14,825 nt of DNA from Escherichia coli. GTDB lineage: Bacteria; Pseudomonadota; Gammaproteobacteria; Enterobacterales; Enterobacteriaceae. The stretch is from NCBI RefSeq assembly GCF_044324875.1, contig NZ_CP172189.1. One strand, given 5' to 3'. Of this stretch, positions 12,644 to 13,740 are shown piece after piece. The position numbers and the translations under genes are program-made. The notes under the pieces are model-generated. The model was not told the origin of the DNA. It did not search any database and saw only the letters and a list, made by a program, of their open reading frames with translations. Within the stretch, counting starts at the first letter, position 1, and the number at the start of each line of letters is the position of its first letter.

Positions 12644-12742
12644 AAAGCGGTAGAAAAAGTTAAGTTCCCGGTTGATCGAATGGATGCGAATCGCTGATCG
12701 GACTTCGATGCCAATCCGTGATCGAATAGAGCGGAATACGCA

Positions 12743-13403
12743 TCCCGCCGTTCGGATCTGCAATGCTGATACTGCTTCGCGTCACCCTGACCACTTCCAG
12801 CCCCGCCTCAGTGAGCGCCTGAATCACATCCTGACGGCCTTTTATCTCTCCGGCATGGTAAAGTGCATCTATACCTCGCGTGACGCCCTCAGCAAGCGCC
12901 TGTTTCGTTTCAGGCAGGTTATCAGGGAGTGTCAGCGTCCTGCGGTTCTCCGGGGCGTTCGGGTCATGCAGCCCGTAATGGTGATTTACCAGCGTCTGCC
13001 AGGCATCAATTCTAGGCCTGTCTGCGCGGTCGTAGTACGGCTGGAGGCGTTTTCCGGTCTGTAGCTCCATGTTCGGAATGACAAAATTCAGCTCAAGCCG
13101 TCCCTTGTCCTGGTGCTCCACCCACAGGATGCTGTACTGATTTTTTTCGAGACCGGGCATCAGTACACGCTCAAAGCTCGCCATCACTTTTTCACGTCCT
13201 CCCGGCGGCAGCTCCTTCTCCGCGAACGACAGAACACCGGACGTGTATTTCTTCGCAAATGGCGTGGCATCGATGAGTTCCCGGACTTCTTCCGGATTAC
13301 CCTGAAGCACCGTTGCGCCTTCGCGGTTACGCTCCCTCCCCAGCAGGTAATCAACCGGACCACTGCCACCACCTTTTCCCCTGGCATGAAATTTAACTAT
13401 CAT
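12743..13403 (-). pseudogene. mbeA: Truncated mbeA (N-terminal ~220 codons of the relaxase domain), fused at its 3' end to the IS21-family right terminus
   Basis: Identical or near-identical to MbeA of module B up to ...VTRSSISIADPNGG, then reads into IS sequence (MRIPLYSITDWHRSPISDSHPFDQPGT). DNA similarity to module B stops exactly at the IS terminal CA (12742). Confidence 0.85.
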
Positions 13404-13740
13404 CCCGCGCCCCCTGTTCCCTGACAGCCAGACGCAGCCGGCGCAGCTCATCCCCGATGGCCATCAGTGCGGCCACCACCTGAACCCGGTCACCGGAAGA
13501 CCACTGCCCGCTGTTCACCTTACGGGCTGTCTGATTCAGGTTATTTCCGATGGCGGCCAGCTGACGCAGTAACGGCGGTGCCAGTGTCGGCAGTTTTCCG
13601 GAACGGGCAACCGGCTCCCCCAGGCAGACCCGCCGCATCCATACCGCCAGTTGTTTACCCTCACAGCGTTCAAGTAACCGGGCATGTTCATCATCAGTAA
13701 CCCGTATTGTGAGCATCCTCTCGCGTTTCATCGGTATCAT
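13393..13740 (-). CDS. mbeC: MbeC/MobC-type relaxosome accessory protein, second copy
   Basis: MIPMKRERMLTIRVTDDEHARLLERCEGKQLAVWMRRV..., virtually identical to the copy at 7477-7824. Confidence 0.85.
   Translation of the reverse strand: MIPMKRERMLTIRVTDDEHARLLERCEGKQLAVWMRRVCLGEPVARSGKLPTLAPPLLRQLAAIGNNLNQTARKVNSGQWSSGDRVQVVAALMAIGDELRRLRLAVREQGARDDS

Follow-up and report, generated by a model that had tools for sequence, protein, structure and literature searches.

In the 14,825-bp stretch of DNA analysed here (the window), a minus-strand open reading frame (ORF) of 248 codons including the stop (12660..13403) joins MbeA residues 1–220 to 27 residues derived from an insertion sequence (IS), and is probably a pseudogene remnant lying at a plasmid-fusion junction, which IS-mediated replicon fusion followed by Xer/cer resolution would have left behind. 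The window was found to be one circle in which an arc of nearly reference ColE1 sequence, a pColY-like arc and a single ISSso4-like element of the IS21 family are joined, and the truncated relaxase gene sits exactly where the ColE1 arc meets the IS.

The hybrid ORF ends the mbeA homology at the IS terminus

Translation of 12660–13403 (−) resolved the ORF into a 661-nt 5′ remnant of a ColE1-type mbeA (12743..13403, minus strand), delimited by comparison with ColE1 and with the full mbeA copy on the same molecule, and the right end of the IS read in the mbeA frame (12660..12742, minus strand), which supplies 27 codons (MRIPLYSITDWHRSPISDSHPFDQPGT) before a TAA stop at 12660–12662. An earlier interpretation made from the letters of the window (the sequence-only reading) had counted about 220 mbeA codons and 27 IS codons before the stop, and this was exact; the ORF 12660–13451 that it had delimited does exist, but 13451 is merely the most upstream in-frame ATG, located inside mbeC, and by homology mbeA starts with the ATG at 13403, giving an 11-nt overlap with the mbeC stop as annotated in pB771_9494. 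The alignment that it had proposed as a check, 12743–13403 versus the full mbeA copy at 6827–7487, was ungapped with 631 of 661 positions identical (95.5%), and of the 83 nt past the breakpoint just 23 matched the full copy, i.e. chance level. Compared with the reference ColE1 MbeA, 218 of the 220 residues are identical, and only 4 of 220 differ from the resident full-length relaxase; at the nucleotide level, 12743–14825 corresponds to ColE1 (NC_001371) 2840–758 with 99.7% identity (6 differences in 2,083 nt).

In ColE1, mbeB starts 28 nt past the breakpoint, and therefore both mbeB and mbeD are wholly absent from the truncated copy, as had been supposed, together with the 3′ half of mbeA. No mbeA-like sequence was found on the other side of the IS, and so no full mbeA continues past it; the flank there is the colicin Y gene, cya. 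An exact look-up of the 247-aa and 263-aa versions of the hybrid protein in a collection of 15 billion proteins found neither. Two database MbeA variants (P0037 and P0044) were observed to shift into the MbeB frame at residue ∼220–226, i.e. to be MbeA–MbeB fusions, and their frame shift lies at the same place as the IS cut.

The IS joins unrelated sequences without a target duplication

The IS is an ISSso4-like insertion sequence of the IS21 family, 2,639 bp long with TG...CA termini and multiple terminal repeats (10104..12742, plus strand). It is 99.7–100% identical to many annotated copies, and identical ones carry the RefSeq label ‘IS21-like element ISSso4 family’. It encodes istA, the DDE transposase (about 10336–11871, plus strand; Pfam rve/Mu-transpos_C_2), and then istB, the AAA+ helper (about 11888–12643, plus strand; Pfam IstB_IS21, E = 2.4e-60), both intact and in agreement with the RefSeq annotation in p1054c and in an 8,214-bp E. 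coli plasmid. The element ends, TGCAAAATGG...GGAATACGCA, are common to independent copies in three other records, with flanks that differ each time. The right terminus GGAATACGCA of those copies corresponds to window position 12742, so the mbeA homology begins at the first base after the IS, and the mbeA breakpoint coincides with the element end to the base.

The same IS makes 6-bp target duplications elsewhere, namely GCCTGA in p1054c and CGATTT in OX345325.1; here it is flanked by ACCTCC on the left and TCCCGC on the right, without such a duplication. Given that the two flanks differ and that the left one belongs to cya, not mbeA, the IS forms a junction between unrelated sequences. A simple IS insertion into mbeA was thus ruled out by the missing target duplication and by the cya 3′ end as the other flank, and a local deletion of the mbeA 3′ part was ruled out as well, since the IS joins two different plasmids that meet a second time in a cer core. 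The sequence adjoining the left end of the IS is a 3′ remnant of cya of about 69 codons (9893..10103, minus strand), 99.5% identical to pB771_9494 and to about a dozen other pColY-type plasmids among the matches listed; beyond the breakpoint, uninterrupted cya reads on with cgcatt. A mirror-image hybrid ORF (9893–10189, minus strand) was also seen, running from a GTG start in the IS left end into the last ∼69 codons of colicin Y.

Copies of the IS were located in other small ColE1-like plasmids, i.e. at 3545–6183 of p1054c, at 769–3407 (+) of OX345325.1 and at 5576–8214 of an E. coli plasmid, the last having a similar backbone and the same length as the 8,214-bp Salmonella plasmid with the IS sitting elsewhere. 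The ISSso4-like element has hence inserted repeatedly into small ColE1-like plasmids, many of whose hosts are poultry isolates, and mbeA may be a favoured target region of it.

Two plasmid arcs meet at the IS and in the cer core

Window positions 1 and 14825 correspond to ColE1 positions 757 and 758, which are contiguous in ColE1, so the window is the complete 14,825-bp circle in circular permutation. Its ColE1 arc runs 12743→14825→1→∼3465 and carries mbeA′, mbeC, rop, oriT, ori, the colicin lysis gene, imm, cea, exc1 and exc2; ColE1 matches 12743→14825 and then 1→3614 at 99.4–99.9% identity. The pColY-like arc (∼3496→10103) is 99.5–100% identical to pB771_9494 and contains a 2.3-kb segment, complete mbeA/B/D, mbeC, rop, oriT, ori, the lysis gene, cui and cya′. 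The 2.3-kb segment (3615–5930, from cer to the mbeA 3′ end) is not in ColE1 and is present in pColY-like and 8,910-bp colicin plasmids. It contains no ORF of any length, its sole recognisable content being a short transposase HTH fragment at 3987–4205 (Pfam HTH_Tnp_1). Two RNAI genes were located (9–113 and 8919–9021), and they are diverged in their middle parts, as would be expected for two compatible ColE1-type replicons.

The two arcs meet only twice, at the IS and in a 36-bp interval holding the single cer core (3466–3495, minus strand), which comprises the XerC arm, the 8-bp centre and the XerD arm (GGTGCGTACAA-TTAAGGGA-TTATGGTAAAT). The 30-bp cer core, used as query, matched exactly (30/30) and at this one place in the window, and gave 0 matches in 200 shuffles; the core is also present at the homologous place in ColE1 and its relatives. 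SNPs of the ColE1 type run up to 3462 and those of the pColY type begin at 3499, which places the type switch between 3463 and 3498. As read from these polymorphisms, the switch in the cer core records, at base resolution, Xer site-specific recombination between two different plasmids.

The sequence-only reading had assigned the truncated gene to a separate unit, ‘module C’. This did not hold, as the gene belongs to the ColE1 arc that runs across the window ends, and a division of the window into an 8,910-bp unit and a 5,915-bp ‘module C’ was rejected because each unit would itself be a ColE1/pColY chimera. The split into a ColE1 arc and a pColY arc is preferred for needing only two junctions, both at recombinogenic sites.

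Replicon fusion followed by cer resolution as the probable history

The following history is proposed. ColE1 and a pColY-like plasmid carrying the IS in cya would have been fused by the IS, whose target in ColE1 would be TCCCGC at mbeA codon ∼220; the fusion would have proceeded through an IS21-type cointegrase or through recombination between two copies of the IS. The resulting cointegrate would hold two IS copies, along with two cer sites in direct repeat. XerCD would then resolve cer × cer, a type of resolution that is the normal intramolecular reaction, and split off an ori-less circle that would be lost with the ColE1 mbeA 3′ part, mbeB, mbeD, the second IS, the cya 5′ part and the pColY exc1/exc2. 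The circle that survived would be the window, which has the two ColE1-type replicons and the two oriTs together with a single IS and a single, hybrid cer. Such a history would account for all junctions to the base. For the fusion step, PMC10122671 (citing Schmid 1998 and Berger & Haas 2001) describes a cointegrase form of the IS21-family IstA that catalyses replicon fusion.

The IS/mbeA junction was found in no other record of PLSDB, the complete E. coli genomes or the GTDB representative genomes, nor was the cya/IS junction in PLSDB and the complete E. coli genomes. Neither of the predicted reciprocal junctions (mbeA-3′/IS-left with TCCCGC, and IS-right/ACCTCC-cya-5′) was found when synthetic queries were run against the complete E. 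coli genomes, where only the nearby p1054c insertion was hit. The collections searched thus yielded no precursor, and the succession of events is inferred from the final molecule only.

The same final sequence could be reached along another route, which we consider rather unlikely: ColE1 and a pColY-like plasmid would first form a heterodimer, at cer or by homologous recombination, and an IS insertion in cya would be followed by an adjacent deletion spanning the cya 5′ part, exc1, exc2, the second cer and the ColE1 mbeA 3′ part up to codon 220. The missing target duplication is also expected for an IS-adjacent deletion, and dimeric ColE1-type records do exist, e.g. plasmids of 13,292–13,294 bp and of 17,105 bp. 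However, adjacent deletions are not known to be a documented hallmark of IS21-family elements, and a RecA fusion would be expected to fall at any point along ∼3.2 kb of 94% homology, not within 36 bp. Fusion at the cer core is disfavoured too, as Xer recombination at cer is constrained to the intramolecular resolving direction (established; see also bioRxiv 10.64898/2026.02.23.706985).

It would be a different matter if the assembly had misjoined two co-resident IS-bearing plasmids, in which case the fusion would be absent as drawn. The two plasmids share long near-identical repeats, and neither junction recurs in another record of the collections searched, both of which fit such a chimera; a template switch would, however, be expected in the longest identical repeats (the IS or ori), whereas one of the switches lies in a 36-bp interval with the cer core, and we hold an artefact of this kind to be highly improbable. 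Even in that case, the IS/mbeA junction at 12742/12743 must exist in the sample, and so the truncation stands. Replicon fusion with subsequent cer resolution is retained as the probable origin of the molecule.

The remnant keeps the catalytic core and loses part of the N-terminal module

The hybrid ORF matched the NCBIfam profile NF047848 (relax_MbeA_E1, MOBP5/HEN) at 520.8 bits, with a curated cut-off of 500 bits, over profile positions 1–225 of 497, and Pfam Relaxase (PF03432) matched it as well. The remnant retains Y19 and the H-x6-E-x-N motif (H97, E104 and N106), which reportedly have catalytic roles in MbeA (Varsaki 2003). Among 140 homologues, Y19, H97 and E104 are invariant and N106 is at least 90% conserved. 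Homologues at 41–59% identity align over query residues 1 to about 282, defining a conserved N-terminal module, and the cut after residue 220 drops about 62 residues of this ∼282-residue module together with the entire C-terminal half; the remnant thus has neither the complete N-terminal module (∼282 aa) nor the C-terminal half (∼500 aa in total), and does not count as a whole member of the MbeA family. Among the residues lost are G227, one of the five invariant columns in the 140 homologues, and R224, L225, Y230 and F234, each at least 90% conserved.

A deep-alignment AlphaFold model of native MbeA 1–299 (pLDDT 94.4, pTM 0.87) displayed a core followed by a subdomain at 165–280 made of two helices, a three-stranded sheet and two long helices. 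The cut removes the third strand (223–226) and both long helices (239–253 and 255–280). The best PDB match of this model was 2ns6, a minimal MobA relaxase domain spanning 183 residues, so the MbeA core ends well before residue 220; a sequence search of solved structures with full-length MbeA found no solved relative. The hybrid protein itself, modelled from a shallow alignment, reached a pLDDT of 59 and was left out of the fold comparison, its 27-residue foreign tail being predicted as disordered in this low-confidence model. The N-terminal ∼220 codons of the relaxase domain noted in the sequence-only reading thus hold the catalytic residues and the core, but not the whole module to ∼282, which is incomplete with a β-strand, two long helices and G227 lost.

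The cut N-terminal module, the lost C-terminal half and the lost mbeB and mbeD together make a non-functional pseudogene most probable, and from sequence and model the remnant is most likely inactive for mobilisation, in line with the ‘non-functional mob copy’ that had been put forward as one option. With the catalytic core intact, residual binding or nicking of oriT, or binding of MbeC, is possible, and any interference arising from it would be speculative. The remnant may still be co-transcribed with the intact mbeC; its expression is deduced solely from the identity of the upstream region to ColE1, and a consensus scan of 12500–14250 for a promoter found none.

The other option, an active truncated relaxase, would require the MbeA(1–220)-tail protein to be stable and to serve as a dominant-negative or regulatory decoy for the full-length relaxase, through binding or nicking of oriT or titration of MbeC. 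Y19, H97/E104/N106 and the core fold are kept, mbeC upstream and the presumed promoter region show no difference from ColE1, just 4 of 220 residues separate it from the resident relaxase, and an N-terminal fragment of MbeA contacts MbeC according to PMC6118388 (citing Varsaki 2012). Against this, the cut bisects the conserved and confidently modelled subdomain 165–280 and removes the invariant G227, the foreign tail is predicted to be disordered, the junction is fully explained as a by-product of the fusion, and the absence of the exact hybrid protein from the 15-billion-protein collection gives no sign of its being maintained or spread; a literature search for dominant-negative relaxase fragments found nothing relevant. 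We regard an active remnant as very unlikely, and least likely of all is its most specific form, in which MbeA(1–220)-IS-tail made from the intact ColE1 mob promoter would act as a decoy on oriT or MbeC and damp the relaxase at both oriTs. If true, the decoy would lower mobilisation and also keep the fusion plasmid from being resolved between its oriTs into circles of 8,910 bp and 5,915 bp.

One complete mob set and two oriTs on the fused plasmid

Beside the remnant, the truncated copy still has mbeC and oriT identical to ColE1 and lacks its own mbeB and mbeD. The ColE1-arc mbeC (13393..13716, minus strand) is an intact MobC/NikA-like relaxosome accessory gene (Pfam MobC and NikA-like; 0 differences from ColE1), rop (13780..13971, plus strand) likewise has 0 differences and is annotated as Rop at the homologous place in another record, and the oriT/bom region (13972..14230, plus strand) is 100% identical to ColE1, in agreement with the intact oriT that had been described there. 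The pColY-like arc provides a complete mbeA of 517 aa (5934..7487, minus strand; 99.5% to pB771_9494) with mbeB (6281–6799, minus strand) and mbeD (6041–6274, minus strand; MbeD NF033829) nested in it, mbeC (7477–7800, minus strand), and a second oriT (8057..8315, plus strand) in direct orientation relative to the first. The oriT motif is GTATACTGGCTTAAC at 14109–14123 in the ColE1 arc and GTATACTAGCTTAAC at 8194–8208 in the pColY arc, and the nick of the ColE1 oriT is presumably placed inside CTGG/CTTA. Beside this presumed nick site the two motifs differ (CTAGCTTAACT in the pColY arc versus CTGGCTTAACC in ColE1).

With 4 of 220 residues differing from the remnant, the full-length relaxase plausibly serves both oriTs. 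The proposal that the oriT beside the remnant could be mobilised in trans by the relaxase of another module became moot, as both oriTs and the complete mbeABCD set reside on one circle. To be transferred, the fused plasmid would rely on the mbeABCD genes of the pColY arc, which form the complete set, and a transfer begun at one oriT and ended at the other could free circles of 8,910 bp and 5,915 bp.

The colicin Y immunity gene cui (9341–9865) and the lysis gene (9081–9239) are intact. From its gene content, the plasmid should confer immunity to colicin Y without producing it and still encode colicin E1 and its immunity protein; the fused plasmid would thus make colicin E1, carry immunity genes to E1 and Y, have lost colicin Y production, and possess two oriTs with one working mob set.

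Significance and comparison with known systems

The remnant is a scar that matters little for relaxase biology; annotation should treat the ORF as a pseudogene, and MOB typing should not count it as a second relaxase. The wider value lies in a natural example of ColE1-type plasmid remodelling, in which an IS21-family element and the plasmids' own cer probably turned two compatible colicin plasmids into one two-replicon plasmid. The exact IS/mbeA junction is new to the collections searched, and its kind, i.e. IS-disrupted or truncated relaxase genes of ColE1-like plasmids, is already known.

Compared with ColE1 mbeA (NC_001371, MOBP5/HEN relaxase MbeA), the remnant shares nearly every one of its 220 residues and the same upstream mbeC, rop and oriT, but is cut after codon 220, carries the foreign 27-residue tail and lacks the nested mbeB/mbeD and the C-terminal half. 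The nearest likeness is the mbeA::ISSso4-like insertion of E. coli GPEC1054 p1054c (NZ_JBUBIS010000004.1), where the same IS sits in the same orientation 12 bp from the present site and PGAP calls mbeA a pseudogene, ‘incomplete; missing C-terminus’; the Salmonella plasmid OX345325.1 (8,214 bp) also has this IS within mbeA, likewise oriented and 213 bp away. Both of these are simple insertions with 6-bp duplications and have the rest of mbeA with mbeB/mbeD across the IS, whereas cya is found there in the present molecule. Of 348 ColE1-like plasmids bearing a relaxase, 11 were reported to have a truncated relaxase gene (Ares-Arroyo et al. 2021, PMC8683028), and the remnant resembles these ΔMOB relaxases in lying beside an intact oriT on a ColE1-type replicon, unlike them in that a complete second relaxase set is on the same molecule. 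With IS21 cointegrase fusion and Xer/cer resolution as the model, the present circle differs in that one IS and one cer remain and the two-IS intermediate is presumed from them, and agrees in that the IS occupies one inter-plasmid junction and the cer core the other, with both parents colinear and in direct orientation.
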